From Verrucomicrobiia bacterium (lineage in GTDB: Bacteria > Patescibacteriota > Saccharimonadia > Saccharimonadales > JAGQNK01), in the NCBI GenBank assembly GCA_035489575.1, contig DATHJY010000007.1, positions 1,047 to 65,046 on the forward strand: a stretch of DNA of 64,000 nt. Direction: 5' to 3'. Position 1 is the stretch's first letter, and every line of letters starts with the position of its first letter. Of the stretch, positions 12,666 through 58,912 are shown one piece after another. The translations under genes and the position numbers were made by a program. Below the pieces are notes generated by a model. That model was not told where the DNA came from, did not search any database, and saw only the letters and a program-made list of their open reading frames with translations.

Positions 12666-12719
12666 ACGGCGTGCCTTTTTGCCCCCTTGTTGTCCGTTCT
12701 GTCTGTTATTTTTTATTAC

Positions 12720-13904: not shown

Positions 13905-13976
13905 ACCTCTATGGTACCACGCCTCATAACTCAACAGCCCATCCCATATTCATCACCCTTTCCAAACCGCTCTCTC

Positions 13977-14023
13977 GCTCATTTCAGGGTCGAACCCTGA
14001 AACAGGGTTCGACCCTGAAATGA
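13977..14023. repeat. REP-like palindromic element (copy 1)
   Basis: CTCATTTCAGGGTCGAACCCTG, AAA, then CAGGGTTCGACCCTGAAATGAG: a perfect 22-bp inverted repeat. Related copies occur at 58734-58797. Confidence 0.8.
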
Positions 14024-14057
14024 GGACTCTGGATGAGGATCTCGCATAATATGGGTA

Positions 14058-14825
14058 TTATTTGATGATGAAGACTCCGAGTAGTGGCGAATGATCAGAG
14101 GGAGAGCGCGGCAGAACGTTGAACTCCTCTAAGTGCAGCTCGCCGTGTTTTGTCCAAAGTATATTGTCGTAGTTAGCAAGAGCAATCCGCCACTTTTGGC
14201 CATTCCAGCGCCAGGTGGGGTTTCGCAGCGAACCAGTGCGTCGCCCAAGGTGCTGGGGCATGCGAAGCCACGGTGCCATATATTTTGTTTCGTTAAAGTC
14301 ACCACCAATTATCACGCTCTTATGCGCGACGCTTTCCAGCAGCTTTTCGTAAGTTCGGCGGTGCTTAACATGCGTGGACCAGTTCATAAAGAACAAGGCA
14401 GCCAGATAATTTACGACGATGGCTACATCTTCTCCGCCGAATCGCAGGTGTGCCTCTATGGCTTTTACGTGGTAGCCTTGGTAGCCGCGCGCTTTGTTGG
14501 CCTGCGTATCCGGCCCCAGCCGGTGATCAACTATTTTGGTGGGCTTTTGTTTGGTTACCAGTGCGCTACCAATCATCCACTGATCTGACATAGGGCTAAA
14601 CGGTGCAAAGTGCGTTTTGTACCCCTGCTTCTTGAAATAGTCCAGCACCGGGGAGGCGTTGGTCTGACGATGGACCAGCACCTCATTTAGCCCAAATACG
14701 TCAGGGTCGTAGGCTTTTATAAAGTGGTCAAATTTTGCCTGCAGCTTGGAACCGTCGTCACGCCGGCCACTCTGTACCTGCTCCCAGATATTCCAAAAAA
14801 CAACAGTTACCTGTGTGTTTGCCAT
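14058..14825 (-). CDS. endonuclease/exonuclease/phosphatase (EEP) family protein
   Basis: VVFWNIW near the N-terminus, IIGGDFNE, and SDHSPLLGVF near the C-terminus. Start at MANTQVT (14825). Confidence 0.75.
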   Translation of the reverse strand: MANTQVTVVFWNIWEQVQSGRRDDGSKLQAKFDHFIKAYDPDVFGLNEVLVHRQTNASPVLDYFKKQGYKTHFAPFSPMSDQWMIGSALVTKQKPTKIVDHRLGPDTQANKARGYQGYHVKAIEAHLRFGGEDVAIVVNYLAALFFMNWSTHVKHRRTYEKLLESVAHKSVIIGGDFNETKYMAPWLRMPQHLGRRTGSLRNPTWRWNGQKWRIALANYDNILWTKHGELHLEEFNVLPRSPSDHSPLLGVFIIK

Positions 14826-14874
14826 GCAAATAACTATATCAAGTACAAAGCGCGACATGCATGATTGTCCAAAC

Positions 14875-14903
14875 TTGCAAAAAGTAGTTTTATATGCTAA
14901 AAT
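14875..14903 (+). promoter_or_regulatory. sigma70-type promoter of cassette C3
   Basis: TTGCAA (14875-14880), 17 nt, then TGcTAAAAT (14898-14903). Confidence 0.5.
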
Positions 14904-15062
14904 AGTTTTATCTCTATCAGAGGCTACGTCTCGTTAGAGTACCTTTATAAGCAGACAGGATCCTGTGGTCGGGTGTGAAATAAGCCTATCAACTATAGTG
15001 ATAGTTTTATTTCACATTCGACCAACCCCGACACGGGCACATGCCCGACACCAAGGAGAGAC

Positions 15063-15485
15063 ATGCTCCAGACCCTAACCCAGACGGCCAAGAACGGCGC
15101 GGACATCGCCATGCGACTGCTGGCGCCTTACGGCCTCGACATCGACTTCCGGAAGACCAGCTTCGGCTGCATCCTGTTCATCCTCGCAGAGAGGAAGTGG
15201 CACGCCGAGTGGAACCTGGCCCAGCAACGGGTCGAGGAACACTCCGAGCGAGTGAAGAGCCTGGAGGGCACCATCGGTGGCTTCGCACAGCACTTCAGCG
15301 GCAACGCCAGCTGGCATGCGATCAGGACCACCTTCATGGGTCATGACCTCAGCCTGTTCATCGCCATGGCCGAGGGCTACCACACGAACGCCGAACAGCT
15401 GGACTACCTCCTGCACTGGCTGAGCAACCCCCAGGCCGAGACCAGCCGCCTCGAGGAAGTCCTCAGGACGACGCGCCACCACTAG
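15063..15485 (+). CDS. cassette C3: GC3-rich hypothetical protein (140 aa)
   Basis: AAGGAGAG SD at 15053-15060 and a GC3-rich ORF. Distantly similar to C4b (KW-x-W/A, GH-E/D-L and DYLL-x-x-L segments in the same order). Confidence 0.7.
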   Translation: MLQTLTQTAKNGADIAMRLLAPYGLDIDFRKTSFGCILFILAERKWHAEWNLAQQRVEEHSERVKSLEGTIGGFAQHFSGNASWHAIRTTFMGHDLSLFIAMAEGYHTNAEQLDYLLHWLSNPQAETSRLEEVLRTTRHH

Positions 15486-15638
15486 CGGCCACTGACCCCG
15501 CAAGTCGACAGGACTGGACATAGGTTCAGGACACTGCTGGCTGCTGCCCGTGCTCCCCCTTTGTCCAGTTCCTGTCTGCTTGTTTTTCTTTTACGCCCCT
15601 CTGGGCTATTTTTTATACTATGCCCAGATGAAAGCGGG

Positions 15639-15666
15639 TTGATTTTTTATAATTTTATGGTAATGT
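15639..15666 (+). promoter_or_regulatory. promoter of cassette C4
   Basis: TTGATT (15639-15644), 16 nt, then TGgTAATGT. Confidence 0.4.
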
Positions 15667-15858
15667 ATACGCAACTCTAAGGTGCCGCTTGTGGCACCTC
15701 TATTAGAGTTCTTTTACAAGCAGACAGATGATGGATGAGTAGCAAGGCTATCTTTGCCCGGTAGTTTTGCTACTCATCCATGTCAAACGACAAAGGTTAG
15801 ATGCGACAATCGGTTGCGTCTAGAGTCCATGGACTCTGAGTTCCTTTTGGAGGCCATC

Positions 15859-16311
15859 ATGAAAGAAGGCGTCAAGAACTTCCTCCGTACCCTCTACAAC
15901 ACCCTCCGCACCATGCTCGACTCCACCCAGACCGAGGGCACTTCCGACCCCGAGCCCAGGCCCAACATTCCGGTTTACCGTGGCGCCCGTTGCTGCATCA
16001 GCATCGACGTGTTCGACGGCGACGAAGAACTGACGCGTCGGGCCGAGGCTTTCCTGGCCGCACTGGCCACGCATGACCTAGCCCTGGTGAACTACATAGA
16101 CCACTTCCCCGGAGGGATTCGTGTGTTCATCCGCCCCTTCCCGGGCGAGCACGATCTGGTAGTCAAGTACTACAAGCGCGGCAATTGTCTGGACCGTCGA
16201 GCCGCGACCTACCTGACCATCCTGGTCGAGGAGTTCTTCCGCGCCGACAACGTCGACGGACTGGCGATCGAACTCAGCAAGACAAGCTCCATCCCCGCAC
16301 ACATCCGCTAG
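15859..16311 (+). CDS. cassette C4a: GC3-rich hypothetical protein
   Basis: GGAGG SD at 15848-15852 precedes the ATG at 15859. An alternative in-frame ATG lies at 15829; the track start at 15754 falls inside the leader hairpin. Confidence 0.65.
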   Translation: MKEGVKNFLRTLYNTLRTMLDSTQTEGTSDPEPRPNIPVYRGARCCISIDVFDGDEELTRRAEAFLAALATHDLALVNYIDHFPGGIRVFIRPFPGEHDLVVKYYKRGNCLDRRAATYLTILVEEFFRADNVDGLAIELSKTSSIPAHIR

Positions 16312-16346
16312 TGCCGCGACACTCATTACAGACTGGAGATACCAGC

Positions 16347-16817
16347 ATGCTGGTTTCTGTCCTGAGCTTCCTGACTTGCTTCAAGGTGGAACACCTGGTC
16401 GATGAGTTCAGGAGACGGTTCGCCCCCGACCCCGAGCTCAACGTCATGGACAGCACCGCCCTCATTGGCATCGTGATCAGCTTCACCGCCGACCAGGAAA
16501 AGTGGCGCTGGCAAAGTGCCAGGCACGCAGTGCTACACCACTGCATCCGCCTACGCCGGATACACGAGGACATCCACTCCTTCCTGGAGCGCTTCGAAGA
16601 CTGCATCGGGAGTCGACCCGAGCTAGTGACGGACTACCGAGGCCACGAGCTGCGGACATGGTTCGACTGTAAGGGCGACACCGGGCTCTCCATGGCCGCC
16701 GCGGACTATCTGCTGCGAGTACTCGCCATGGTGGACGCCACCGACAAGCAACTCCGGAACGCTCTGCGCATCACCGAACTCCCCCAGGATGCCGCCATAG
16801 TGGCATCCGCGTCGTAA
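16347..16817 (+). CDS. cassette C4b: GC3-rich hypothetical protein (156 aa), second gene of the C4 unit
   Basis: GGAGA SD 7 nt upstream of the ATG, 35 nt after the C4a stop. Paralog-like to C3. Confidence 0.7.
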   Translation: MLVSVLSFLTCFKVEHLVDEFRRRFAPDPELNVMDSTALIGIVISFTADQEKWRWQSARHAVLHHCIRLRRIHEDIHSFLERFEDCIGSRPELVTDYRGHELRTWFDCKGDTGLSMAAADYLLRVLAMVDATDKQLRNALRITELPQDAAIVASAS

Positions 16818-16979
16818 CCGTAGCCCTCATGGGCCAAGCAGCAGGGCTGGACGAAGGCTCAGGATGTTGCTGGCTGATGCCGGTATCTCCCCCTTTGTCC
16901 AGTTCCTGTCTGCTTGTTTTACTTTTTATGCCACGCCCCTGTGGGCTTTTTTTATACCACCGCATAAGAAGGGGCAGGA

Positions 16980-17008
16980 TTGAATTTTATTAACTTTTAT
17001 GCTATAAA
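16980..17008 (+). promoter_or_regulatory. sigma70-type promoter of cassette C5
   Basis: TTGAAT (16980-16985), 17 nt, then TGcTATAAA (17003-17008). Confidence 0.45.
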
Positions 17009-17037
17009 ATTGATATAACGTACTCGCTTACTCCCTG

Positions 17038-19296
17038 ATGAGAAAGCTTTTTTTGTTTGCACCTTCCACTGAAGTGGACCGACAAAGGATCACGCACTTG
17101 AGGATCATCCACTCAAAGCAAAGTTTGCCCACCGAAATTGTCGGCCAGAAGTGCAACGGCTCCCTGTTCCTGGGAGGCGCACTGCCGCGGTCCGACAAGA
17201 TCAACCAGGAGCCTGCCCACTGGCGATCCGACGCCTACCGCTTTCTGGCCGAAAGGTTCGACGGCACCGTCCTGACACCCGAACGCCAAGAGGGCAGCCT
17301 GGCCTCCTACGTCAGCCAAGCCGACTGGGAGCAGGCTGCGCAGAACAGCGCAGACGTCATCTTCTACTACATGACCCGAACGGCCGACATCCTGGCCCTC
17401 AGCACCAACACCGAGGTTGGCCAGTACATCCGGTTCGGCCCCCAGCGTGTCGTGCTGTGTATTCCCGAGAACGCCGATTTGGCGATGAAGACCGAGTTCC
17501 AACAAACCGTTGCCAAAATGCAGGGCATCGAGCCGATCATCGGCCTCGAAGCCGGCCTGGAGCATGCCATCAGCCTGATCGGCGAAGGCGCCGAGCGACA
17601 TGGTGGCGAGTGCCAGGTACCCCTGTACGTATGGCGTACGCCCAGCTTCCAAGCCTGGAACAACGCCCTCAAGGCCGCCGGCAACCGGCTGGACAACTTC
17701 CACCTGGACATGACCCTCTGCCCCGTGCCAGCCTTTGTGCTGTTCTGGGCGGCAAAGGTCAGTATCTGGGTAGCCGGCGAGGAGCGTCACAAGGACAACG
17801 AGTGGGTCATTTCCCGCCCTGACATCTCGCACTGTGTGCTCGTATACCGCAAGGGACCGAAGACACACATAGTGGGTGTGCGGGAGTTTCGCAGCACTGT
17901 CCGCAACGCGGATGGCTACGTCTACGAAGCAGCGGGCGGCAGCTCTGCCAAACCCAGCCTGGACCCCATCCAGGTGGCGATCGACGAAGTTCGGGAAGAA
18001 ACCGGCCTACGGCTCCGCCCCGCGCAACTTCGCTTTGTGGCTTCCCGCCAGCTTGCAGCCACCACCACGGCACACCACGCCTACGTGACGGTTGCCGAGC
18101 TAACGGACGAGCAGTACCAGCAAGCGCTGGCCCAAGAGGGCACCTACGCCGGCGACCTGGCCGACAGCGAAATGACCGCTCTGACCGTGTCGACACTCAC
18201 CGAGCTGTTCGCCGGCGAAGAGCTGGACTGGTCCAACCTGGGCATGACCGCACAAGCGTTGCTCCAACTGGACGCCGAGCACAAGCCCAAGTACACCGTG
18301 GCCAGTTCGGCCGGCCAGACGTACGCCCTTGTCATATTGGACGCACTGACCGGCTCGGCCCTGGACACCATCCTGGGCATCATGGCCGCCGGGACCACCG
18401 TGGTCTATGCCGGACCCCAGCAGGGCAACCTCGGCTTCGAGCAACGCGTGGACATTGCGACCACACTTGGCTTGTTTGCTGACAAGCTGACCCAGCAGGG
18501 CATCGACGCCCAGTTCATCCACCTGGCCGGAGACGGCGAGGACCAGCTGAGGCGTTTGCAGGCACTGGTGGAGCCGGACAACCTGACCGTCTTCGCCTTC
18601 GTGGGCGACTACGGACTGAGTCCGGACGCAATCCGACAGGTCCAGCTGATGCGCCACCGTGGCGTCTCGGTCGTGGGCAGCTGGTGTGGCAGTACGCCGC
18701 AACCAGAGCTGTTGGTCGTGAATGGCTCGTTAGCCGCACCCGACATCGGGTATGTACCTTTTGCCAGGCAGTGGTCGCAGTCCGGCAGCGAAGTACAGAT
18801 CTGCACACCGCAGGACTGTGCCGTAGTGTCAGTCGGTCGGCTCACGCCAGCCGCCTACTACCGGTTGGCCGGATTGTTGATCGCCGGGACGCACCTCATC
18901 TACGGAGGAGCACCCGTCGACCAAGAAGCCCCCGAGGGCCGTATCCACCTGACTCGTTCGCTGAGACTGATGGCTGCCAAGCTTGGTGTTGCCGGCATCC
19001 CCGCCCGCGTCACCACGTTCGAGGAGCCAGACGTCGAGAGTCGTCGTCTGAAGTTGCTCGCGCTCGCGCAGCAACACTGCGCCCCGGTTCTGGCCTTTGT
19101 CGATGACCAAGGCTTGGCACCTGGCGTAGCCCAAGAATGTGCGTGGGCGCGCGACTGCGGCCTGCCGGTTACCGGCCTGTGGGTCGGATCGTCCGGGGGG
19201 TTCGAGCTCAGAACTCTGGGCGATGCCCTGGACGTGAACGAGGCCTCACTTCAGCCATTGGCGCAGATGCGTCAGCCAGGCCTGGTCCTGGCGTAA
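17038..19296 (+). CDS. cassette C5: GC-rich multidomain protein with a nucleoside 2-deoxyribosyltransferase-like domain, a Nudix domain and two Rossmann-like (SLOG/DUF2493-like?) repeats
   Basis: Nudix box GGSSAKPSLDPIQVAIDEVREETG (~17931-18006). The N-terminal LFLGGAL...ADVIFYYM...STNTEVGQY pattern resembles NDT/Rcl-type folds. Two similar ~140-aa C-terminal repeats each end in V(V/T)G(S/L)W. The true start is probably downstream of 17038, because the first ~20 codons are AT-rich leader. Confidence 0.65.
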   Translation: MRKLFLFAPSTEVDRQRITHLRIIHSKQSLPTEIVGQKCNGSLFLGGALPRSDKINQEPAHWRSDAYRFLAERFDGTVLTPERQEGSLASYVSQADWEQAAQNSADVIFYYMTRTADILALSTNTEVGQYIRFGPQRVVLCIPENADLAMKTEFQQTVAKMQGIEPIIGLEAGLEHAISLIGEGAERHGGECQVPLYVWRTPSFQAWNNALKAAGNRLDNFHLDMTLCPVPAFVLFWAAKVSIWVAGEERHKDNEWVISRPDISHCVLVYRKGPKTHIVGVREFRSTVRNADGYVYEAAGGSSAKPSLDPIQVAIDEVREETGLRLRPAQLRFVASRQLAATTTAHHAYVTVAELTDEQYQQALAQEGTYAGDLADSEMTALTVSTLTELFAGEELDWSNLGMTAQALLQLDAEHKPKYTVASSAGQTYALVILDALTGSALDTILGIMAAGTTVVYAGPQQGNLGFEQRVDIATTLGLFADKLTQQGIDAQFIHLAGDGEDQLRRLQALVEPDNLTVFAFVGDYGLSPDAIRQVQLMRHRGVSVVGSWCGSTPQPELLVVNGSLAAPDIGYVPFARQWSQSGSEVQICTPQDCAVVSVGRLTPAAYYRLAGLLIAGTHLIYGGAPVDQEAPEGRIHLTRSLRLMAAKLGVAGIPARVTTFEEPDVESRRLKLLALAQQHCAPVLAFVDDQGLAPGVAQECAWARDCGLPVTGLWVGSSGGFELRTLGDALDVNEASLQPLAQMRQPGLVLA

Positions 19297-19369
19297 ACGC
19301 GTTTGACGCAATCACCCGAGAGGGGGTCTTTTCGGGTCAAACCGATCTGACCTCCTCACGGGTAAATTT

Positions 19370-20425
19370 TTATACTACGATACCGCCGCCAAGCACTGTG
19401 TCTTTATCATAAATAACGGCGGACTGACCTGGAGTAATGGCCCGCACTTGCTCGTCCAAAATCAACCGTATACCCGTATCTGCCTGCTCAATTGTGCATG
19501 ACACCAATGGCGCTCGATAGCGCGTGCGCACTTGATACTTCTTATCCAAGTTTGGTTGGCCGTTTATCCAGTGCACATCTGTCAGGGCTAGCTCTTGCTT
19601 CCACAAGTTCTCATCATTCAGGTTGGTGGTCACATACACCTCGTTCTTGGCCATGTCTTTGCCGGTGACATAGTACGGCAAGCCACCACCCACGTTCAGG
19701 CCGTGGCGCTGGCCAATGGTGTAAAAAATAGCGCCGTCATGCTCGCCAATGGCTACACCATGCTGCTCTTTTATAACGCCCAGTTCGGTAGTGACATACT
19801 GGCTCAGAAAATCACGGATGCCGACCTTACCCACAAAACAAATGCCCTGGCTGTCTTTTTTCTCGGCCGTGGTCAGACCCAGCTTTTTGGCCAGTGCCCG
19901 TACCTCGGCCTTGGTTTTGTAGTCGCCAATGGGCATCAGGCTTTTTTTGAGCGCGTCCTCCGTAACTCGACATAAGAAATATGTCTGATCTTTTTCGGCA
20001 TTGGCCGCCACCAATAATTGCCCGTCTTGTATCCGAGCGTAGTGGCCTGTGGCAATCAAGTCTGCACCGTCTGCTAGGGCGGTGTCGAGGAACAACCTGA
20101 ACTTGACCTCTTGGTTACACATGATGTCTGGGTTGGGCGTACGGCCAGCCTGGTATTCGGCAATCATGTAGTCTACGACTTTTTGCTGGTACTCGACCTG
20201 GAAGTCGTACATCTTAAAGTCTATGCCCAGCTGCACCGCCACGCGCTTGGCGTCCTGGTAGTCTTCTTTCCACGGACAGGGCATACCGGGCAGGTCTTTG
20301 CTCCAGTTTTTCATGTACACGCCCACCACGTGGTAGCCCTGTTCTTTCAGCAAAGCAGCAGTAACGGAGCTATCTACTCCGCCACTCAATCCCACATAAA
20401 CAGTCTGCTTTTTCTGGGGCTTCAT
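19370..20425 (-). CDS. mnmA: tRNA 2-thiouridine(34) synthase MnmA
   Basis: VYVGLSGGVDSSV PP-loop with a full-length MnmA-like body. Confidence 0.9.
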   Translation of the reverse strand: MKPQKKQTVYVGLSGGVDSSVTAALLKEQGYHVVGVYMKNWSKDLPGMPCPWKEDYQDAKRVAVQLGIDFKMYDFQVEYQQKVVDYMIAEYQAGRTPNPDIMCNQEVKFRLFLDTALADGADLIATGHYARIQDGQLLVAANAEKDQTYFLCRVTEDALKKSLMPIGDYKTKAEVRALAKKLGLTTAEKKDSQGICFVGKVGIRDFLSQYVTTELGVIKEQHGVAIGEHDGAIFYTIGQRHGLNVGGGLPYYVTGKDMAKNEVYVTTNLNDENLWKQELALTDVHWINGQPNLDKKYQVRTRYRAPLVSCTIEQADTGIRLILDEQVRAITPGQSAVIYDKDTVLGGGIVV

Positions 20426-45319: not shown

Positions 45320-47230
45320 GTGACCCTGGAAAAATCAGCCGATAGCAACTATATACGCGTAGCAACTGCCTGCCCCGAGGTAGCCCTAACCGACGTTGCC
45401 ACTAACACGCAGCATATCAAGGACCTCTATAGCGATGCTATCGACGCAGATGCTGCTCTGGTGGTCTTTCCAGAGATGTCGGTAACTGGTTATTCCATCG
45501 GTGACCTAGTCCAAAATAATCAGCTTTTGGCCAACGCCCGAACTGGATTGACGCAGTTGGCCGAGGCCACCGCCAATAAGCCGACCGCCATGGTAGTCGG
45601 TCTACCCCTGGCAGTCGGCAGCGCTATCTATAACTGTGCGGCTGTTTTAGCAGATGGCCAGGTTAAGGGCATCGTCCCCAAGTCCAACATGCCCACTTAT
45701 GGCGAATTTTATGAAAAACGCTGGTTCCAAGCCTGGGATCAGCCAAATATAGAGGTGGAAGTAGCCGGAAAAGCAGTTCCCTTTGGTACTGATTTGCTGC
45801 TTGACATCAATGGCACCAAGGTTGGCGTGGAAATCTGTGAAGATTTGTGGGTTGCCGATCCGCCCAGCCGCAAACTGGCCGAAAATGGCGCCCACATCAT
45901 AGCCAACCCCTCCGCTTCGCCGGAGCTGATCGGCAAGGCTGATTATCGCCGACAACTCGTAGCCCAACAGTCAGCCCGGCTGGTAATGGCCTACCTATAC
46001 GCCGGCTGCGACCCGTCCGAGTCGACCATGGACATTGTCATGAGCGGTCACCAGTTGATTGCCGAAAGCGGCCGCATTGTGGCCGAACGCACGCCACTAT
46101 CAGACGAAAGCCGGCTGCAAATTGCCGACATAGACATTCAACACCTGGAGCACGACAAGCGCAAAGACACCAATACTGTGGTAAAAACAGGGGCGCAGAT
46201 CATCCGCTGTGGTATAGATCCCAACCGTTTCACCCCTGATCTCAAGCTCAATAAATATCCATTTTTGCCCCCAGAAGACAGTGCCGAGCGCGAGCAACGA
46301 TTGGACCGTGTCATTGCCATTCAGGCCACTGGTCTGGCGCAGCGCGCCAAAAGTAGCCACCAGGAACGAGTTGTCCTGGGGCTGTCAGGGGGACTGGATT
46401 CCACCCTGGCGTTGCTGGTGGCCGTAGAGGCAGCCAAGCGCCTTGGCAAGGAACCAAAAGATTTTATCCATACCATCACCATGCCTGGCGAGGCCAGTTC
46501 TGACCGTACCCAAAGCAACGCCGTCAAACTGGCACAGAGTCTGGGCGTACCTAACACCCAAATCCCTATCGGCAAGCTCAGCCAGGAACAGCTTTTGGCC
46601 CTCGGCCACGATGGTGAAACGCAAGATATCACTTACGAAAATGTCCAAGCCCGCCTGCGCACCAGCATTTTGTTTAATTACGCCAATAAAGCAGGCGGCA
46701 TGGTGCTAGGAACAGGCGACCTAAGTGAAATTGCCCAAGGGTGGTGCACCTACAATGGCGACCACATGAGCCACTACAACGTCAACGCCAGTATTCCTAA
46801 AACACTCGTGCGACATCTGGTCGCTCATCTGACCACCAAGCCATCACACGAAACAAGCAAAACTACCCTAGAAGACATTCTGCAGACACCCGTATCGCCA
46901 GAGCTGGTAAGCGCGCAGCCAGGCCAAATCAGCCAAGAGACCGAAGCAATCATCGGCCCCTACGCCCTGACCGACTTCTTCCTGTATTACCTCATCCGCT
47001 GGGGTGATGCGCCCAACAAAATCCAGTTCCTAGCCGAGCAAGCGTTTAAAGACGATTACTCACCAGAGGAAATCAGTAAGTGGCTCGGTTCATTCCTCAA
47101 GCGCTTCACCCAGAACCAATTTAAACGCTCAGCCATGCCCGACGGACCAAAGGTGGGCTCAGTAGCCCTCAGTCCCCGTGGTGACTGGCGCATGCCGTCT
47201 GATATTCCCTCTACAGCCTTGTGGTCCTAA
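45320..47230 (+). CDS. nadE: glutamine-dependent NAD+ synthetase (nitrilase-like domain plus NadE domain)
   Basis: The N-terminal CN-hydrolase domain includes GVEICEDLW (catalytic Cys). The C-terminal domain has LGLSGGLDS (PP-loop). Confidence 0.9.
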   Translation: MTLEKSADSNYIRVATACPEVALTDVATNTQHIKDLYSDAIDADAALVVFPEMSVTGYSIGDLVQNNQLLANARTGLTQLAEATANKPTAMVVGLPLAVGSAIYNCAAVLADGQVKGIVPKSNMPTYGEFYEKRWFQAWDQPNIEVEVAGKAVPFGTDLLLDINGTKVGVEICEDLWVADPPSRKLAENGAHIIANPSASPELIGKADYRRQLVAQQSARLVMAYLYAGCDPSESTMDIVMSGHQLIAESGRIVAERTPLSDESRLQIADIDIQHLEHDKRKDTNTVVKTGAQIIRCGIDPNRFTPDLKLNKYPFLPPEDSAEREQRLDRVIAIQATGLAQRAKSSHQERVVLGLSGGLDSTLALLVAVEAAKRLGKEPKDFIHTITMPGEASSDRTQSNAVKLAQSLGVPNTQIPIGKLSQEQLLALGHDGETQDITYENVQARLRTSILFNYANKAGGMVLGTGDLSEIAQGWCTYNGDHMSHYNVNASIPKTLVRHLVAHLTTKPSHETSKTTLEDILQTPVSPELVSAQPGQISQETEAIIGPYALTDFFLYYLIRWGDAPNKIQFLAEQAFKDDYSPEEISKWLGSFLKRFTQNQFKRSAMPDGPKVGSVALSPRGDWRMPSDIPSTALWS

Positions 47231-49392
47231 CGAACTGCTAGCAGGCCTAGGTCGCGAGCGACCGCATATGCCGGCCCATGGTAATCAACCGGCCCCTCAA
47301 CGCCCTTTTGAGCGTTGAGCATATCAGCAATTCGATGGTTCATATCAAAGGGCCGATAGGTCACAGGCTTGCCACGCTCACGCATCTTGGCAATACTCAC
47401 GGCCGTAATATTACCGCCACCGTATGCTGCGATACTATCACTAGCACCAAGGAATGTGCGAGTGGTAGGCGAAAGCAGTCCACTTGCCCGCTGTTCATAG
47501 CGATACCCGCCCCATCCCTGATCTTTGACCACTACCAGCTCATCCACACCGTCGGTGACCTCTTCGTTACGGCCAACAGCCGTGCTGGCAACGATTCCCA
47601 AAGTATGAAAACCAAGTTCTTTTATAACCGGATACAATCGGCCAATGCCGTAAGGAGTAGCGCCGATGGCAATAGCCGTTTCCTCTGGATCAAGCGCCTC
47701 CAGATCCTCTACCACCGCATCAACCAGTCCGTCCGGATCTTCGTACTCTAGCAGCGAGTAACCAAACAGAGCGTGGACCTGCATGCCGTGTTCTCTGGCC
47801 TTGCGTATGGCGCTTATAACTCCCAGCGGCTTGACGACCCCCATCTTGAGCCGGTTCTTTCCGGAACCGTCTGCGTTAATGATGTTGGCCATGTTGCCAA
47901 TAAAAGCATCTGTAAAATATTCGTCTGTCGACACTAGGTCGCGACAAGTGGCCAGCAAGTCCTCCTGCGAGATCTGATCGTCCGAGACCAGCCGATACAA
48001 ATCAGCCGCACCCTGAGCAATAGCCAGCCTAGTTCTGGCAAAGTCGCTGCCCAGGGTCGTACTACGCCTTCCTGGCAGGTCAAAAAAGTTGCCAGACAGC
48101 TTACGGAAGACGTGAGCCAGCACAGTGGCACGCTCACCCATAAAGTGCTCGACCACCGTGCCGTCAGTGGCTTCAAACGGCATACGCTCGCCAGGGGTGC
48201 GCATGATGGCGTCTGCGATTGTGTCACGGGTGGGATCGTAGGCGTCTTCGTGCAGAATCTCGAACAAAATCATACGCATGGCAACTCGACGATCCCACTC
48301 CTCACCGGCGGCTATGCCCTCTAGGTCAACTGCCGGTAACAGCGTCTCGTGTATAAGCTTGGTGGCATCTTCACAGTATTTGCGCATACTCACGCCTTCA
48401 CGTTCGGCACCTAGCAGCAACTCTTCATACAGCCTGCGAGTATGGTTGACATCATGATGGAAGAATTCATAAGGTGTCTGCGGGCGACCATCGACCGTCA
48501 GCGTATCTGTTGAAGCCCCGACAATTCCTATCGGCACGCCGCGAACCTTCAAAAGATCAAAGGCCGTCAGGCCGGCCGTTGATGGCAGCACAAAATAATC
48601 ATCTTCGCGCGGCAGAGTGTGCCAGTCATACTCGAACCGTTTGGTGTGGTAAATCGGTGGCGAGTCTGGCTCGTTCACCCGGGCAACGACGTCAAAAAAT
48701 GCAACCGTGTCTTCTATCAGATCAAGCGTGCTGGTATATCCAAAGGTTCCTTCGTCAATCTTATCCTGAACATTTCGAATAACACGATCGCGCATCTTGC
48801 TTGTCGCAGGAGAGAGATCGCAAGCAGCCAGGACTTGCTGCTTGTTAACCAAGTCATAATAGAGCGTCTTCAGGGTAGCACCGAACTCTGGGAATAATGC
48901 CTCCATGCCGCCTTCTGTCCGACGCTTGTTGAACTCATCGTATACCGCTAGCGGATCACTCAGCAGGCGGTCCATAGCAGCCTGTTCTTCGGCCTTCGCT
49001 TCGACCTTATAGGATTCTGGCAGTTCCTCACGGCGCCACTCAGCTGGCTCGCCGTCGTCTAGAACCACCTCTGTAAAGTACGTGGCCTTATCTAGGGCGC
49101 GGCTGGTAGGCTGTTCGGGATACGCTTCGGTTCGGCGCAACTCGTACGGAAAATCATCGCTGTCGGCCGCAACCTGAAAGCTATACGTAACGTGTGCCAG
49201 GTGATTCTCTGCCTGCGTAAGTATGGGCATGAGCCCCGGATCACTGGACTGATCAGGGTATAACGCCGCAAACTCCTCGGGGTTTTCGGCTATGTCGTGT
49301 AGACGGTCCAGAAAATAACCGACTTGTTCGCGGTTTTCTGCCTCTGCACCATCATATACACCGTCTCTCTCAATAGATACTGACACGTCCAA
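47227..49392 (-). CDS. large hypothetical protein; the C-terminal ~170 aa look Rossmann/LOG-SLOG-like
   Basis: 721-aa ORF with backbone composition. The C-terminus AIGATPYGIGRL...LGIVAST...AYGGGNIT resembles LOG/DprA-type nucleotide-binding folds (tentative). Confidence 0.55.
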   Translation of the reverse strand: MDVSVSIERDGVYDGAEAENREQVGYFLDRLHDIAENPEEFAALYPDQSSDPGLMPILTQAENHLAHVTYSFQVAADSDDFPYELRRTEAYPEQPTSRALDKATYFTEVVLDDGEPAEWRREELPESYKVEAKAEEQAAMDRLLSDPLAVYDEFNKRRTEGGMEALFPEFGATLKTLYYDLVNKQQVLAACDLSPATSKMRDRVIRNVQDKIDEGTFGYTSTLDLIEDTVAFFDVVARVNEPDSPPIYHTKRFEYDWHTLPREDDYFVLPSTAGLTAFDLLKVRGVPIGIVGASTDTLTVDGRPQTPYEFFHHDVNHTRRLYEELLLGAEREGVSMRKYCEDATKLIHETLLPAVDLEGIAAGEEWDRRVAMRMILFEILHEDAYDPTRDTIADAIMRTPGERMPFEATDGTVVEHFMGERATVLAHVFRKLSGNFFDLPGRRSTTLGSDFARTRLAIAQGAADLYRLVSDDQISQEDLLATCRDLVSTDEYFTDAFIGNMANIINADGSGKNRLKMGVVKPLGVISAIRKAREHGMQVHALFGYSLLEYEDPDGLVDAVVEDLEALDPEETAIAIGATPYGIGRLYPVIKELGFHTLGIVASTAVGRNEEVTDGVDELVVVKDQGWGGYRYEQRASGLLSPTTRTFLGASDSIAAYGGGNITAVSIAKMRERGKPVTYRPFDMNHRIADMLNAQKGVEGPVDYHGPAYAVARDLGLLAVR

Positions 49393-50388: not shown

Positions 50389-50634
50389 TCAGGCGAGCAC
50401 CTTGGCGGTCACCGGCTGGCCGGCGGCCATGGCACCGAAGTTGAACTCGTCGTTCTTGACGCCCTCCACGAAGGCATCCCACTCGCCGCGGGTGAAGGTG
50501 AGGGTCGGACCCTGCCGATCCTTCGTGTCGCGCACGACGACGTTGCCGTCGACGACAGCTGTCTCCACGCACTGCATGCCGTCGCTGAACGAACTCGTCA
50601 GCCAGTCGATGGTGCTGTCCTGGTGCTGTGACAT
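50389..50634 (-). CDS. cassette C8: DUF397 domain protein (GC3-rich)
   Basis: DWLTSSFSDGMQCVETAVVDGNVVVRDTKDRQGPTLTFTRGEWDAFVEGVKNDEF matches the DUF397 pattern (W..SS.S....CVE.A....V.VRDSKD..GP.L.F....W..F..G.K.GEF). AGGAGAGG SD. Confidence 0.8.
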   Translation of the reverse strand: MSQHQDSTIDWLTSSFSDGMQCVETAVVDGNVVVRDTKDRQGPTLTFTRGEWDAFVEGVKNDEFNFGAMAAGQPVTAKVLA

Positions 50635-51053: not shown

Positions 51054-51185
51054 AAACATATTCTCAGGTGGTCGCACTTGCGTATCATTTGAGCACTTTG
51101 ACATGTCAGGCAAATCGTTTGGGATATGGATACGAGCCATCTTGTGATGTTTCATATCCATACCCCAACCGAGAAACGAGATTCC

Positions 51186-51392
51186 GTGATCCCCAAGTCC
51201 GTCCGCAAGTGGACGCTCCGTCTGATGGTCGTCGGTGTCGGCGTCGTGGCTTACATCACCAAGCCCTGGTGGCGTGGTGAGAAGCTCGACCTGCCCTCGC
51301 GACATGTCCTCGACACGTCGACCCGCCAGATCGCCAACGAACGCCACGTCGGCTTCGACGAGGCCCAGCGCCTGGAAGCAACACCACGATGA
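51186..51392 (+). CDS. cassette C9a: GC3-rich small membrane protein
   Basis: GTG start assumed. One TM helix (LRLMVVGVGVVAYI). ATGA junction with the next frame. Confidence 0.5.
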   Translation: MIPKSVRKWTLRLMVVGVGVVAYITKPWWRGEKLDLPSRHVLDTSTRQIANERHVGFDEAQRLEATPR

Positions 51393-51469
51393 TCGAACGA
51401 GTCCGGAGAGTCTTCGGCCTCACCCGAGCCATCGTCGCGTTTCGCAACCCCCAGCAACAGGAGACATCC

Positions 51470-51682
51470 ATGATCAAGAAGATCTTCGTCGGAACCGTCC
51501 TCGCGGCCGTTGGTACCATCGGTGCCATCATGGCCTACGACGCCGCCAGCGCCGACCGCGACCAGCGCATCGTCCGCGGCATCAGGACCATGGCCCGCAC
51601 TCCGTGGACCCCGGTCAACAACGTCCGCGACCGCTACCAGCGGCGTGCCCGACGGCAGCAGGAAGTCACATCCCCCACCTGA
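51470..51682 (+). CDS. cassette C9b: GC3-rich small membrane protein
   Basis: AGGAGA SD then the ATG at 51470. MIKKIFVGTVLAAVGTIGAIMAY TM helix and an Arg-rich tail. Confidence 0.6.
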   Translation: MIKKIFVGTVLAAVGTIGAIMAYDAASADRDQRIVRGIRTMARTPWTPVNNVRDRYQRRARRQQEVTSPT

Positions 51683-51698
51683 CCCCGGAGGTCAGATC

Positions 51699-51863
51699 AT
51701 GAGCCAGACCCTCAAGCGCCTCATCATGGCACTCGGTGTCCTCGGCATCGTTGCCCTCATCACCGAGGTCGTGACGCTCGACGTCAAGATCGACTGGACC
51801 AACATCGGCGGCTCCACCGGAGACACCGCGCCCCAGGACGATCACGACGTGCAGCAGAGCTGA
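51699..51863 (+). CDS. cassette C9c: GC3-rich small membrane protein (54 aa)
   Basis: GGAGG SD then the ATG at 51699. TM helix LIMALGVLGIVALI. Confidence 0.55.
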   Translation: MSQTLKRLIMALGVLGIVALITEVVTLDVKIDWTNIGGSTGDTAPQDDHDVQQS

Positions 51864-53725: not shown

Positions 53726-54973
53726 GTGAAGATGGAAAACTCGCCCATAACCTACGGACCAGAACTGGAGAGATCTTACATCACCTCCGGCCTAGACTAT
53801 TACAAGCCCACGATGAGCCAGTTGGCGCACGAGATAGAGCCAGACGCCGAGGTCACCTTCACCCTAAAAAACAGAGGTGAACAGAGGTTGGTGGAATACA
53901 TCGAGCCAGAGCAGTTGCAGGCCCGGTTAGACACTATCCAGGGGCGTGGCTTTAACCAAACCGAACTAGACTACATGGCCAGTCTGCATGACAGCCAGGG
54001 CGTACGCGTCTTTGCTGATTCGTTCCTGCAACACATTGCCGACACTCCCCTGCCAGAAGCAACCGTCACTATAGAAGACAACGACATAGCCGTACATACC
54101 ACCGGCGAGTGGAGCATGGCCACCTACTGGGAAACCGTGGTCATGAGCGAAGTCAACGAACTGTATTTTGAAAGCTATGTGACCAAAAACGGCCTGGATA
54201 TCTTCGAAGTCTACGACGAAGGCGACCGCCGCTTGAGCGAAAAGATCGAGATACTGCAACAAAACCCAGACATCAAAATTGTCGACTTTGGTACCCGCCG
54301 TCACTTCTCGCACCGCTGGCAACGGCACGTGACAGAACGCCTGGTCAACGAGTACCCGGACAATATGGTAGGTACCAGTAACGTCGCCCTGGCTAATGCC
54401 CTGGACATCAAGCCCATCGGCACCTTTGCCCATGAAATGCCCATGGTCTACGCCGGCCTGGCCGACAGCCGTGGCCAAGACATCCGGGCTTCGCATCATC
54501 AGTTCTTAGAGGATTGGCACGACCGCTACGGCGAAGACCTGTCTACCGTCCTGACCGACACTTTCACCACCAACTTCTTCTTTTCAGACTTTACATCAGA
54601 GCAAGCCGCCGAGTGGCGGGCCCTGCGTCATGATTCGGGCGATCCCATAGAATTTGGCGAACGCGCCCTGGCCTTTTACGAACAACATGGCATAGACCCT
54701 ACCACCAAAACCATTGTTTTTAGCGACGGTCTAAATATCGAAGAAATCGTGAAACTACACAATCATTTCAAGGATCGCGTTGGTGTCATCTTTGGCTGGG
54801 GCACCACACTGACCAACGACCTCGGCATTCCGCCATTGAATATCGTTATGAAAGCCACCGAGGTCGATGGCACGCCCACCGTCAAGCTGAGTGACAACCC
54901 CGGCAAACACACCGGCCCTGCCGGAAAAATAGCCCTGTACCAACACATTTTTCAAGAGGAGATCACAGCATGA
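53726..54973 (+). CDS. pncB: nicotinate phosphoribosyltransferase
   Basis: 415 aa with NAPRTase-like motifs (FGTRR, SDGL) and NAD-salvage gene context. Confidence 0.8.
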   Translation: MKMENSPITYGPELERSYITSGLDYYKPTMSQLAHEIEPDAEVTFTLKNRGEQRLVEYIEPEQLQARLDTIQGRGFNQTELDYMASLHDSQGVRVFADSFLQHIADTPLPEATVTIEDNDIAVHTTGEWSMATYWETVVMSEVNELYFESYVTKNGLDIFEVYDEGDRRLSEKIEILQQNPDIKIVDFGTRRHFSHRWQRHVTERLVNEYPDNMVGTSNVALANALDIKPIGTFAHEMPMVYAGLADSRGQDIRASHHQFLEDWHDRYGEDLSTVLTDTFTTNFFFSDFTSEQAAEWRALRHDSGDPIEFGERALAFYEQHGIDPTTKTIVFSDGLNIEEIVKLHNHFKDRVGVIFGWGTTLTNDLGIPPLNIVMKATEVDGTPTVKLSDNPGKHTGPAGKIALYQHIFQEEITA

Positions 54974-55782
54974 GCCCCGAAATGCGTAATGCCGAACCAC
55001 CCCACCCCGAAGAGATTATCCGCCGCGGCAGCATAGAGCTACTGGCCCAACGCGTCAAAGATCAGGCTTGGCCTGGCTATCCGCCATACGAAGAACGCAT
55101 CCAGGCAGACAACCTGCTGTATGTACCAGAACAACACAACGTGCTGCTACCCACCGACTATGGCTGGGTCAACCAAGCTGACCTAGCTGACGCTAGTTTT
55201 CGTAAGGAATATCCGGACACCGTCACCCAGTTTGATGCTGAGGGGCGCCCCTTGCACCCCTGGTTCTGGGACATGCTCCAGAGCGAAGCCGGTGTGCTAG
55301 GTGGCAAAGGTGCCTACTGGGAATGGGGACCGAATTACACCGCCGACCCCATCATCGTTCGTCACGACCTAGAAGAGCCGCATGTACTGCTCATTCAACG
55401 CTCGGATACGCACGGCTGGGCGCTGCCCGGTGGCTTTGTAGATCCTGGCGAAACCGGATTCTATGCGGCCATGCGCGAAGCTGGGGAAGAAACTGGTCCA
55501 GATATACAAATGGCCCTCCGCCGACCCGGCGTGGGTATGCACCTGGTATATCAGGGCCCCGTAGCCGACCTGCGAGCGACCGCCCATGCCTGGCCCGAAA
55601 CTACAGCAGTGCGATTTGATATCCCCGATCATGTAGCCACCGAACATTTACTAGAGATGCAGTGGGAAGGCAACGATGAAGCAGGCGAAATCGAAGCCGT
55701 CGCCTGGGTGCCTCTGAGCGAGATTGGCAACCGACTGCATGGCTCCCACCGCTTTCTTATCGAGACTGCTCTGGCTGCTTGA
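54970..55782 (+). CDS. Nudix hydrolase (ADP-ribose pyrophosphatase-like)
   Basis: Nudix box GGFVDPGETGFYAAMREAGEETG. ATGA overlap with pncB. Confidence 0.75.
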   Translation: MSPEMRNAEPPHPEEIIRRGSIELLAQRVKDQAWPGYPPYEERIQADNLLYVPEQHNVLLPTDYGWVNQADLADASFRKEYPDTVTQFDAEGRPLHPWFWDMLQSEAGVLGGKGAYWEWGPNYTADPIIVRHDLEEPHVLLIQRSDTHGWALPGGFVDPGETGFYAAMREAGEETGPDIQMALRRPGVGMHLVYQGPVADLRATAHAWPETTAVRFDIPDHVATEHLLEMQWEGNDEAGEIEAVAWVPLSEIGNRLHGSHRFLIETALAA

Positions 55783-55824
55783 CCAGCAGCCGTGAAGCCA
55801 AGAACTTCACTGAGTCCTGTCACC

Positions 55825-55995
55825 TTAACGTCGGTAGACTTCTCGACGGTGCTGTAGGTGCAGAATTACAATGTTTTGTGCATCCACGTCAAAAAGAATT
55901 CGGTAGGTACCCACCCGAAAACGATACTGAGCGTCCGCTGGTTTGTTAAAGGTTCTGCAAAAGTGGTTGCATGCGAACGTCAATGAGTCATAAAA
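55825..55995 (-). pseudogene. 5'-truncated RelE/ParE-family toxin remnant
   Basis: Minus-strand frame ...FNKPADAQYRFRVGTYRILFDVDAQNIVILHLQHRREVYRR* is a typical RelE/ParE C-terminal half. A TGA blocks the frame upstream and there is no N-terminal half or antitoxin. Confidence 0.55.
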
Positions 55996-55996
55996 T
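55967..55996 (+). promoter_or_regulatory. candidate promoter of cassette C7
   Basis: TTGCAT, 18 nt, then TAAAAT (55991-55996); CGTCTC follows at 56003-56008 as in the other cassettes. Confidence 0.35.
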
Positions 55997-56078
55997 CATA
56001 AGCGTCTCGTTCAAAATCCGAGCGAGGCTTTTGCAGTGGGGAGGCGTTAAAACCACCCCATATACAAGGAGCATGTTC

Positions 56079-56507
56079 ATGACACACAAGCTAAAGATCA
56101 GGGTTCCTGCAGAACACCGCACGGCGTTCTCGGGCACCAACGGCAGCAGCTTCACCTTCGATGAGGCCGCCCATCCCGAGAAGGGCATCCATGGCGTTGC
56201 CATGTCAAGCAATGCCATGGCACCGGCAGACCAAGATCGGGTGCTGTGGGTCAACCAGGAGCAGTTCGAGGCACTGTCACGGTACGTGTTGGCTCACCCC
56301 CAACTTCCGCAGGCTGGGACGTACTCCGTCCGCGGTACGGACCTGGTGCTGACCATCAGCGACGACCAGATCTTGTTCATCCACGGAGATGGCACAACCG
56401 TGTACGACCCAGATCTCAGCGCCTGGTCGGGCATGGTCCAGCACTTCCGTGACGGTCGTCGGCCCGGCCAACCCGTCACCGACGGACCGATTCTGGCCGT
56501 CGCCTAG
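56079..56507 (+). CDS. cassette C7: GC3-rich hypothetical protein (142 aa)
   Basis: AAGGAG SD at 56066-56071, 7 nt before the ATG at 56079. No recognisable domain. Confidence 0.65.
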   Translation: MTHKLKIRVPAEHRTAFSGTNGSSFTFDEAAHPEKGIHGVAMSSNAMAPADQDRVLWVNQEQFEALSRYVLAHPQLPQAGTYSVRGTDLVLTISDDQILFIHGDGTTVYDPDLSAWSGMVQHFRDGRRPGQPVTDGPILAVA

Positions 56508-56623
56508 CGAGTCACAGCAATACGGGTTTGGCTCGGACTGTCTGTCTTTTTATGGCAGTCCGGGTCACACTCGATCGAACATATCCCTTACTCCCCACTG
56601 CCCTTAACCTGCCTTAAACATTT

Positions 56624-58078
56624 CTACGCAGACTTGGCAGCAGCTACTTCTTTCCGGGGAAACAGCGTGCCTTCTATGGGCTGGATAACACCCTGTTCGA
56701 ACACATGACGCATCTTAAGCGCGGTTTCGGGCATGAATGGTTGCAGCATTTGGGCAATTTCTAGCAAGCAGCCGACTTGGTAAGCAAGCACTTCGGCCAA
56801 GTGTTCTTTGTCACCTTCCTTGGCAATTACCCATGGTTTTTGTTCGTCAATATACTGGTTGAGGCCACGGACTTGCTCCCAGACTTCCTCCAGTGCACGG
56901 TCAAATCGGAAGTTATCGAGCGCCTCTAGGTACTGTGATGTATCGTGTTCGGCTCCAGGGATATTACCGATAATGCCGTTTTGGTATTGTTTGATCATAG
57001 CGGCGGTACGCTGCACAGCGTTGCCCAACTCGTTCGCGAGCTCACTGTTATAGACCTCCAGCAATCGGTTGGCGCTGAACTCGCCATCACCATAGCTGGG
57101 GATATGGCGCAGCAGGTAATAGCGGAGGACATCGGCCGAATATTCGTTGATGATATCCATAGGGCTGATCACATTGCCGAGGCTTTTGCTCATCTTGACA
57201 CCGCCAGAGGCATTGATAAACCCGTGCACATACAGAGTTTTGGGCAAAGACACGCCCAGGCCCAACAATATGGCGGGCCAGATAGCTGCGTGGAAACGAA
57301 TGATATCTTTGCCAATCACTTGTACGTTGGCGGGCCAGAACTTTTTAAAATCTTCGTGTTCGGGATAGCCCAGAACCGTCAGGTAGTTCATGAGCGCCTC
57401 GAACCAGACATACATGACCTGCGTGTCATCGCCTGGGGCCGGGATACCCCACGATATCTTGTCTTTAGGTCGAGAAATACTGATGTCTGTCAGGCCATCT
57501 TTGATAACATTCAAGATCTCGTGCTTGCGGGTGGCAGGCACAATCCGGAAACTACCACTTTCTATGGCGGTCTGAATTTGTGGCGCGTATTTGGTCAGTT
57601 TGAAGAAGTAATTCTCTTCTTCTATCGTCTCGTATGGTTTGTCATGGTGGGGACATACGCCCTTGTTGTCTTTGGCCTGAGCCTCGGTCACAAACGCTTC
57701 GCAGCCGGTACAGTACAATCCACTGTAGTTGCCTTTGTAGATGTCACTAGCCAGGGCTTTCCAGATCAGCTGGGCCCGCTGCTCGTGTCCGGCGTCTGTC
57801 GTGCGAATGAAACGGTCGTTGCTGATGTTTAGCGCTTTGGCCAAATCCCGAAAGTTCTGGCTCATCTTCCCAGCAAACTCTTGGGGGGACAGTTTTTGTT
57901 CGGCTGCCTTTTCGGCAATCTTGCCGCCATGTTCGTCGGTGCCAGTACTAAAGATAACCGGCCTCTTTTGCACACGTGCGTGTCGAGCCAGTACGTCAGC
58001 CATGATAATTTCCATAGCAAAGCCAATATGCGGCTCGCCATTAACATACGGAATAGAGGTAGTAATGTAATAATTCAT
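56624..58078 (-). CDS. metG: methionine--tRNA ligase (short form)
   Basis: YITTSIPYVNGEPHIGF (HIGH region) and KMSKS present. Confidence 0.9.
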   Translation of the reverse strand: MNYYITTSIPYVNGEPHIGFAMEIIMADVLARHARVQKRPVIFSTGTDEHGGKIAEKAAEQKLSPQEFAGKMSQNFRDLAKALNISNDRFIRTTDAGHEQRAQLIWKALASDIYKGNYSGLYCTGCEAFVTEAQAKDNKGVCPHHDKPYETIEEENYFFKLTKYAPQIQTAIESGSFRIVPATRKHEILNVIKDGLTDISISRPKDKISWGIPAPGDDTQVMYVWFEALMNYLTVLGYPEHEDFKKFWPANVQVIGKDIIRFHAAIWPAILLGLGVSLPKTLYVHGFINASGGVKMSKSLGNVISPMDIINEYSADVLRYYLLRHIPSYGDGEFSANRLLEVYNSELANELGNAVQRTAAMIKQYQNGIIGNIPGAEHDTSQYLEALDNFRFDRALEEVWEQVRGLNQYIDEQKPWVIAKEGDKEHLAEVLAYQVGCLLEIAQMLQPFMPETALKMRHVFEQGVIQPIEGTLFPRKEVAAAKSA

Positions 58079-58507: not shown

Positions 58508-58733
58508 AGTCAGCCTATTGTAAAGCCCCCAGCTTGTTCGTATTTTATGACCGCTAGCTCTGGTGGATCTGCCTCGTCAAACGAGAGTCCTAAGTTAAAT
58601 AGGTCAGAAAACTTCTTCAGGTTCTTGTAGAATTCCATATGTCGTATTAAAACATAGCCATCGAAGTTAAGCGACCGAGACGCGACAACTCCCAACCCCT
58701 ACGCCAACGTTACCCATCCTGCTTGCAGAGCAC

Positions 58734-58797
58734 TATTTCAGGGTCGCATTTCAGGGTCGAACCCTGTTTCACTATTTCAGGGTTCGACCCTGAAATA
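58734..58797. repeat. REP-like palindromic element (copy 2, with an extra partial unit)
   Basis: CTATTTCAGGGTCG, CATTTCAGGGTCGAACCCTG and CTATTTCAGGGTTCGACCCTGAAAT share the same core as 13977-14023. Confidence 0.8.
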
Positions 58798-58912
58798 TGC
58801 TAGAAGAGGCAGGCTTGCCGGGGTAGCTCTTATGGCTCCCGCGCTGTCGGCTTAACTGAAAGCCATTTGTCTGCAAGACCCGAATCAACTGACGAGCGGT
58901 TAATGCTTTCAT
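58772..58912 (-). pseudogene. HicA-family toxin, 3'-truncated and fused into the REP-like element
   Basis: MKALTARQLIRVLQTNGFQLSRQRGSHKSYPGKPA, then the reading frame runs into the repeat and stops. Confidence 0.6.

Follow-up and report, generated by a model that had tools for sequence, protein, structure and literature searches.

A nearly undecayed relE/parE toxin remnant beside an apparently acquired orphan gene unit at the variable Nudix/metG junction of a soil Saccharibacteria genome

Between a Nudix hydrolase gene and metG in the genome of a soil Saccharibacteria member, half of a RelE/ParE-type toxin gene lies directly against a small unit, C7, that carries a single orphan gene. From its alignments, the toxin sequence (55825-55972, minus strand) is a true remnant of a longer gene, now without function, and its truncation is recent. 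Weighing the possible histories of this site, we give slightly better than even chances to one in which the C7 unit replaced a toxin-antitoxin (TA) module in a single event at a variable slot. The C7 unit has six siblings elsewhere in the window, by which we mean the whole 64-kb stretch of DNA that was analyzed.

The window has a mean GC content of 0.53, and its backbone genes have a GC at third codon positions (GC3) of 0.53-0.63. The conserved left flank of the junction is a plus-strand gene for a Nudix hydrolase (54970-55782; Pfam NUDIX, E 2e-15; GC 0.58, GC3 0.58), and it converges with the conserved right flank, the minus-strand metG gene for methionyl-tRNA synthetase (56624-58078; identified by its Pfam families; GC3 0.60). 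Among the matches listed, the closest named relatives of the Nudix protein were Candidatus Saccharibacteria or Saccharimonadales, at 36-50% identity. An alignment-based search returned distant Saccharibacteria at 42% identity or less, likewise among the matches listed, and a single-protein search of genome contigs found no relative. MetG is 50-76% identical to its relatives in conserved synteny, and the wider neighbors of the junction are NAD-salvage, tRNA synthetase, and trehalose genes. Assemblies of soil metagenomes contain the DNA of the window too, as does a 254-kb NCBI MAG contig. Independent assemblies (Logan SRR7026570, JGI 3300020034, and the NCBI MAG contig) agree exactly on the junction between toxin stump and C7, which is therefore not an assembly artefact. 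No integrase or transposase Pfam match was found on the called genes from about 46 to 64 kb of the window, and Rfam gave no match over the whole window. The tRNA scan was also empty, so there is no tRNA integration site. Two other features were observed nearby. Just beyond metG, a HicA gene is reduced to its N-terminal half (58775-58912), a further toxin stump, and a DUF397 gene near the junction has a GC3 of 0.89 and matches only Actinobacteria in the plasmid collection.

The minus-strand open reading frame (ORF) at 55825-55983 matches the Pfam family ParE_toxin (PF05016) over positions 56-89 of the 89 in the model (E 6.8e-6; 27 bits against a cut-off of 23). With the stump as query, a protein search found 81 RelE/ParE proteins (E 1.5e-15 to 1.5e-4), with a median length of 87 aa, and in all of them the stump aligns to the C-terminal half only. 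It is 70-91% identical to that half of the 87-aa toxins, and the conserved ...QHRREVYR tail is included. An earlier, sequence-only reading of this DNA had proposed that the minus strand from 55825 onward encodes the C-terminal half of a RelE/ParE toxin, and the Pfam match and the 81 longer homologs bear this out. At the nucleotide level, the stump is 80% identical to the full-length relE of one contig (L014) over 142 nt (55832-55972 of the window; E 3e-31), with a single 1-nt gap. It comprises codons ~42-87 of a toxin of ~87 codons; the homology is clear as far as 55962 and becomes ambiguous over 55963-55972.

The gap corresponds to a 1-nt deletion on the minus strand at about 55942-55944, where it affects the Lys codon that separates FAEPLT from PADAQ, and it appears in blastn alignments to two relE genes. 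The ancestral frame reads ...FAEPLT/KPADAQ..., and the ...TTFAEPLT segment upstream of the deletion is now read in another frame. The frame given in the earlier reading is therefore correct 3' of ~55942-55944 and, upstream of that point, out of frame with respect to the ancestral gene. The same frameshift is present in an independent assembly, L002. When it is corrected, the mean identity of the stump to its homologs is 79% (maximum 91%), compared with 77% among the homologs themselves, and at the 26 columns with 90% conservation or more the stump shows 0 departures. That it has hardly decayed apart from one frameshift is what marks the truncation as recent. A 15-nt imperfect direct repeat (13 of 15 positions), at 55802 and 55975, brackets the stump; with a chance expectation of about 0.3 for repeats of this kind, it is close to the chance level.

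A working RelE/ParE toxin would need a full-length domain of ~80-90 aa in one open frame, which is not present in the stump. It is also hardly credible that the 52-codon ORF found here is a functional short protein, be it a mini-RelE or a regulator. The ORF is uninterrupted, has a TTG start, and keeps its conserved C-terminal residues intact, but each of the 81 homologs is 80-91 aa long, and for this reason we regard it as a remnant and not as a complete short protein, in agreement with the earlier reading. Moreover, its first ~12 codons are out of the ancestral frame through the 1-nt deletion, no ribosome-binding site or promoter lies upstream, where the C7 leader occupies the opposite strand, and existing gene calls leave the interval from the Nudix gene to C7 empty.

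Two close relE homologs with contigs that were examined (L014 and L015) indicate what is missing. In each, relE lies directly 3' of an 80-aa Phd/YefM gene, with a one-base overlap. At the junction, one would expect the antitoxin gene and the initial ~40 codons of relE on the minus strand at ~55973-56330, a stretch now taken up by the C7 leader and ORF on the opposite strand. When the whole 64 kb were searched by tblastn with all 81 toxins and two YefM proteins, neither an antitoxin nor a relE 5' remnant turned up, and the distance from the C7 stop to the metG stop is only 116 nt. As neither the 5' half of relE nor the antitoxin is found beyond C7, the event included a deletion or replacement that removed at least ~420 bp, and the module has lost the 5' part of relE, its antitoxin, and its promoter.

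The C7 ORF (56079-56507, plus strand) encodes 142 aa and is called as a gene in independent records. A ribosome-binding site, AAGGAG (56066-56071), is found 7 nt before its ATG. The protein is an orphan: a word-indexed search of 5.8 billion proteins returned only the self-match, a phmmer search run exhaustively against 1.84 billion representatives gave no homolog apart from C7 itself, and tblastn against phage and plasmid collections gave no match. Three short, low-complexity phmmer matches in very long proteins were treated as noise. There was no family match in Pfam, PHROG, PADLOC, or NCBIfam. A match to DUF2092 was set aside (E 0.24), and a resemblance of the C-terminus to DUF397 was dropped after BLASTP to E 10 and hmmscan gave nothing. 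The AlphaFold2 single-sequence model, with a pLDDT of 46, was too poor for use. C7 had been described as a GC-rich cassette, and this is clear at third codon positions, where its GC1/GC2/GC3 of 0.64/0.46/0.76 exceeds the GC3 of the backbone genes; in bulk, the excess is modest (0.62 vs 0.53 for the window and 0.58 for the adjoining Nudix gene).

The order of NAPRTase and Nudix genes followed by a convergent metG is kept in nine Saccharibacteria relatives, while the content of the Nudix/metG gap differs among them. It is empty (~10-25 nt) in two (L009 and L098) and holds an inositol monophosphatase gene (Inositol_P) in another two (L004 and L100). A ~315-aa ORF occupies it in L018 and L099 and is fused to the Nudix gene in L019. 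In the closest relative, which has an 83% identical Nudix protein, the gap contains a 147-aa gene and a 229-aa gene. Compared with that relative, the window has also lost pncA, and its gains comprise the DUF397 gene, a 719-aa gene, and several small ORFs of high GC3. Neither relE, yefM, nor C7 is found at the junction in any of the nine. Because the content of the gap differs among relatives and none has relE or C7, the gap is a turnover hotspot at which both C7 and the toxin module are non-ancestral, lineage-specific arrivals. In the data searched, we found one genotype of this species and no strain of it that lacks C7.

For C7, a non-ancestral origin is supported by its lack of homologs, its atypical GC3, and its absence from the junction in the nine relatives. 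The sequence-only reading had concluded that the unit was inserted and is not ancestral, and had taken the truncated toxin as direct evidence for this. The second half of its conclusion stands on the grounds just given; a clean insertion does not, since the far-side half of relE is lacking. Evidence that the unit was acquired comes from the comparison with relatives and not from the truncated toxin alone, which loses its value as direct evidence because the antitoxin is missing along with the far-side half and there is no target-site duplication. The intact relBE or parDE that the reading suggested looking for at the Nudix/metG junction of relatives was present in none of the nine.

The features that had been listed around C7 are all there: an in-frame TGA (55996-55998 in plus-strand coordinates), the promoter-like TTGCAT-N18-TAAAAT (55967-55996, plus strand), CGTCTC (56003-56008), the C7 ORF, and a 3' hairpin with CTGTCTGTCTTTTTAT. 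What they say about the left boundary of the unit is a separate matter. Protein-level homology of the stump stops at the Phe codon at 55960-55962, and nucleotide similarity is ambiguous up to 55972 (6 of 10 matches). The breakpoint, as judged from these alignments, lies at 55963-55973, in the region of the proposed -35 box. The promoter-like site matches the consensus at 8 of 12 positions, with 3 of 6 in the -35 box, and was uncalled by a consensus scan that needs 4 of 6. Its counterpart in cassette C4 is TTGCAA-N17-TAAAAT. The breakpoint zone of relE and the -35 box of C7 overlap, and the TTG of the box varies between strains: L002, otherwise 99.9% identical, lacks 55966-55968, so that the TTG is deleted. 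With the box lying in the ambiguous end of relE homology and part of it missing from L002, the left boundary of the unit cannot be tied to the promoter. The earlier bracket for this boundary, ~55960-55995, does contain the end of toxin homology, but the promoter edge on which it drew is soft. The ends of C7 have no target-site duplication (the flanks are CTTTT and CCTTA), and no recombination signature was found at them.

In the replacement that we favor, the slot would first have held a type II phd/yefM-relE module on the minus strand, co-oriented with metG. The C7 unit of ~630 bp, which consists of a weak promoter, structured leader, ribosome-binding site, 142-aa orphan ORF, 3' hairpin, and trailer, in that order, would have come to occupy the site where the TA module had its promoter, its antitoxin gene, and the initial ~40 codons of relE. 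This would most likely have been one illegitimate-recombination or replacement event with its left end at 55963-55973, bringing C7 in and taking at least ~420 bp of the TA module out. The cell would survive loss of the antitoxin only if the toxin were disabled in the same step, which one deletion or replacement accomplishes. The stump may then have gained its one frameshift and little other decay, consistent with a recent event. We infer all three elements of this account, namely the presence of the TA module before C7, the single replacement event, and the donor. An order of toxin module first and C7 second is the parsimonious one, although the presumed intermediate, an intact yefM-relE at this site, is found in no relative.

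A simpler event would be the transposition or integration of the C7 unit into an intact relE, with the stump marking the exact point of insertion. Homology to relE does stop abruptly at 55963-55973, where the upstream region of C7 starts, and C7 is compositionally foreign. We nevertheless consider such an insertion improbable. The remaining half of relE and its antitoxin (~360 nt, with a promoter in addition) should then lie beyond C7, where there are only 116 nt and from where they are absent, as they are from the tblastn results for the entire window; the missing target-site duplication and the lack of a transposase or integrase nearby also speak against it. A less likely account than replacement, but one with an appreciable share of the probability, is that the two pieces have some other relationship. 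The stump and C7 could be the leftovers of one island, whittled down by deletions, in which the TA module served as an addiction system, or the truncation of the module could be unrelated to the arrival of C7. TA modules typically travel on mobile DNA, the HicA remnant beyond metG indicates that TA decay is common in the region, and different relatives have different gene sets at the junction, all of which would fit. On the other hand, the stump and C7 contrast strongly in composition (GC 0.46 vs 0.62), the leader and trailer motifs of C7 recur in six units at a distance of 40 kb, none of which has TA remnants, and the minimal decay of the stump argues for little time since truncation. We retain replacement of the TA module by C7 as the preferred history.

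The regions around the C7 ORF are themselves structured. A leader hairpin (56003-56029, plus strand) starts with CGTCTCGTT, a 9-mer that is also in the leader of cassette C4 (at 14927), and its centroid structure pairs 56004-12 with 56020-28. It is followed by the leader arm of an inverted repeat, GCAGTGGGGAG (56033-56043, plus strand), which is complementary at 11 of 11 positions to the trailer arm, CTCCCCACTGC (56591-56601, plus strand). With 547 nt between them, the arms enclose the ORF; a perfect repeat of 11 nt was reached in 5 of 2000 shuffles, and non-cognate leader/trailer pairs showed complementarity of 8 nt or less. The trailer arm lies 22 nt from the metG stop and places the right-hand limit of the C7 unit at ~56601. 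Between the ORF and the trailer arm, a 3' hairpin (56523-56573, plus strand; dG -32.8 kcal/mol, z -5.6) carries the trailer motif of the family, CTGTCTGTCTTTTTAT, in its loop region (56538-56553). Since its stem is not followed by a U-tract, the hairpin does not qualify as a canonical intrinsic terminator.

The six other units, C1-C6, are on the plus strand at 10.8-19.3 kb, between alaS and mnmA. Their ORFs have a GC3 of 0.71-0.90, except for C2 (0.53), which is not an outlier, and they carry AT-rich promoter-like sites, as does C7. A trailer motif, CTGTCT-N-TTTTTAT, occurs three times in the window, where 0.01 occurrences are expected, each time just 3' of a high-GC3 ORF, and it has no occurrence in about 100 loci of other genomes. 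One match to it in a scan of viral contigs lay in a contig of 21% GC and was judged to be due to chance, and a second trailer-motif pattern found no match in that scan. Cognate inverted repeats between leader and trailer are present in C3, C4, C5, and C7 (15, 12, 12, and 11 nt, respectively). In minimum free energy folds of these four putative transcripts, the repeat arms form a closing stem around the ORF; for C7, the stem is also present in the centroid structure. On the basis of these models, the repeats may pair as RNA and close the mRNA into a long-range stem. The leader arm of C1, however, overlaps the -10 box, which favors repeats that act at the DNA level over RNA pairing. The cargo proteins are mutually unrelated, with no paralogy among them. 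A comparison of C7 and four sibling proteins with PHROG gave nothing below E 0.07, and the ORFs around the 10.8-19.3 kb array had no match to Phage_integrase. We infer that C1-C7 are acquired genes wrapped in similar expression signals, probably from high-GC DNA of an actinobacterial host.

By itself, the junction reflects ordinary genome turnover, in which a TA module would have been overwritten at a recombination hotspot, and the value of the stump is that of a dated footprint, so little decayed that the turnover can be called recent. The cassette architecture is the more unusual part. Episymbionts with reduced genomes are usually considered to be streamlined, yet at least seven orphan units that share expression signals (with high GC3 except for C2) are found within 64 kb, along with a neighboring gene of clearly actinobacterial type. 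Should a host origin and a shared route of installation be confirmed for the units, they would offer a concrete way into the question of how Saccharibacteria take up host genes. One could go further and see in C1-C7 an undescribed class of promoter-bearing Saccharibacteria cassettes, in which high-GC ORFs from actinobacterial hosts are placed in a shared leader and trailer and installed at the ends of convergent housekeeping genes, overwriting resident DNA, TA modules among it, with the cognate repeats either closing the mRNA or marking DNA ends. We hold this reading to be doubtful, and a literature search found nothing specific on such cassettes in Saccharibacteria; were it true, the relE stump would be the first footprint of the installation process.

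Several known systems resemble parts of this locus. The stump is like the toxins of type II modules that pair RelE/ParE (PF05016) with Phd/YefM in the last 34 positions of the Pfam model, and it differs from them in that it is a pseudogene of ~45 of ~87 codons, frameshifted and without antitoxin or promoter. The units as a group share with integron cassettes their short, single-ORF form, the arrangement of six in one orientation, a structured repeat at the end, and unrelated cargo between conserved flanks. However, they have promoter-like sites of their own, and their repeat arms flank the ORF and are not a local attC. By reading, no GTTRRRY/RYYYAAC pair of attC core sites flanks the hairpin at 56523-56573, and no IntI or other integrase was found on the called genes at 46-64 kb or the ORFs around the array at 10.8-19.3 kb. 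As in MITEs and transposons with terminal inverted repeats, a perfect inverted repeat of 11-15 nt brackets each of four units. These differ from such elements in having no shared termini and no transposase, in a promoter that lies outside the repeats, and, at C7, in the lack of a target-site duplication; the repeat sequence of C7 is unlike those of C3-C5, which leaves no common site for a transposase.

Phage morons, a concept of Juhala and Hendrix, are reportedly autonomous units of promoter, ORF, and terminator, with deviant base composition, that are inserted between genes. C7 differs from them in its lack of prophage context, with no phage genes seen nearby and no PHROG match, as well as in its weakly matching promoter, its hairpin without a U-tract, and its cognate leader/trailer inverted repeats, which are not a moron feature. 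It is like a moron in having a single ORF with a promoter-like site, ribosome-binding site, and 3' stem-loop, in its deviant GC3 (0.76, compared with 0.58 for Nudix and 0.60 for metG), and in its position between two unrelated genes. The minimal mobile elements of Neisseria, described by Saunders and Snyder, are said to be variable gene sets between conserved flanks that are exchanged by transformation and homologous recombination. Judged by its gene content in one species-level genotype and in relatives, the Nudix/metG slot resembles them in its conserved flanks, its freedom from mobility genes, and its four other states, including an empty one, among nine relatives.

A second strain, represented by an independently assembled contig from JGI 3300020034 (L002) that spans the junction of the truncated RelE/ParE toxin pseudogene, the orphan ORF unit C7 (56079-56507, plus strand) and metG, was 99.9% identical to the window across 5.2 kb. 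Over these 5.2 kb, the two differed by one SNP and two deletions. One deletion removes from L002 (at L002 3995) the TTG of the putative -35 element of C7 (window 55966-55968), and the other takes 33 nt out of metG in frame, close to the 3' end of the gene (window 56702-56734; L002 4727), so that L002 lacks MPETALKMRHV. The pseudogene itself (55825-55972, minus strand) is bracketed by an imperfect 15-nt direct repeat, GAACTTCACTGAGTC at 55802-55816 and GAACGTCAATGAGTC at 55975-55989, with 13 of 15 positions matching. Because approximately 0.3 such pairs would be expected by chance in this region, the repeat is not significant.

Another toxin stump lies just beyond metG. This ORF of 46 codons (58775-58912, minus strand) matches Pfam HicA_toxin over positions 1-25 of 58 only (E 4.6e-6), and no intact hicB was recognised. 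Copies of TTTCAGGGT(T)CGACCCTG(AAA), tandem or palindromic, adjoin this stump (58700-58800).

The siblings of C7, six promoter-bearing units (C1-C6), form a plus-strand array at 10845-19375 that is flanked by alaS and mnmA and broken up by two genes, one for a GSDH and one for an EEP nuclease. Their GC at third codon positions (GC3) is mostly high, the exception being C2, which is no outlier. Perfect cognate leader/trailer inverted repeats were found in C3 (15 nt), C4 (12 nt) and C5 (12 nt), and C4 and C5 have in common a homologous trailer of approximately 110 nt, while their ORFs are unrelated.

A 720-aa ORF (47227-49392, minus strand), flanked by nadE and nrtR, has no Pfam family and is missing at the syntenic position of a Saccharibacteria relative whose Nudix protein is 83% identical. 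Three small called genes of 88, 70 and 54 aa (51126-51863, plus strand; GC3 0.73-0.89) likewise have no Pfam family, and in the same relative their place is taken by other small ORFs and pncA. A 1096-aa protein (5171-8461, plus strand) carries, by domain matches, a WhiB transcription-factor domain (residues 262-324) fused upstream of a ResIII/SNF2-type helicase. WhiB proteins are a typical feature of Actinobacteria and the phages that infect them. An 81-aa DUF397 gene (50389-50634, minus strand) has a GC3 of 0.89. Since all 15 matching records in the plasmid collection are from Actinobacteria (Streptomyces, Nocardia, Kitasatospora, Nonomuraea and Embleya), its sequence matches point to a host-derived gene.
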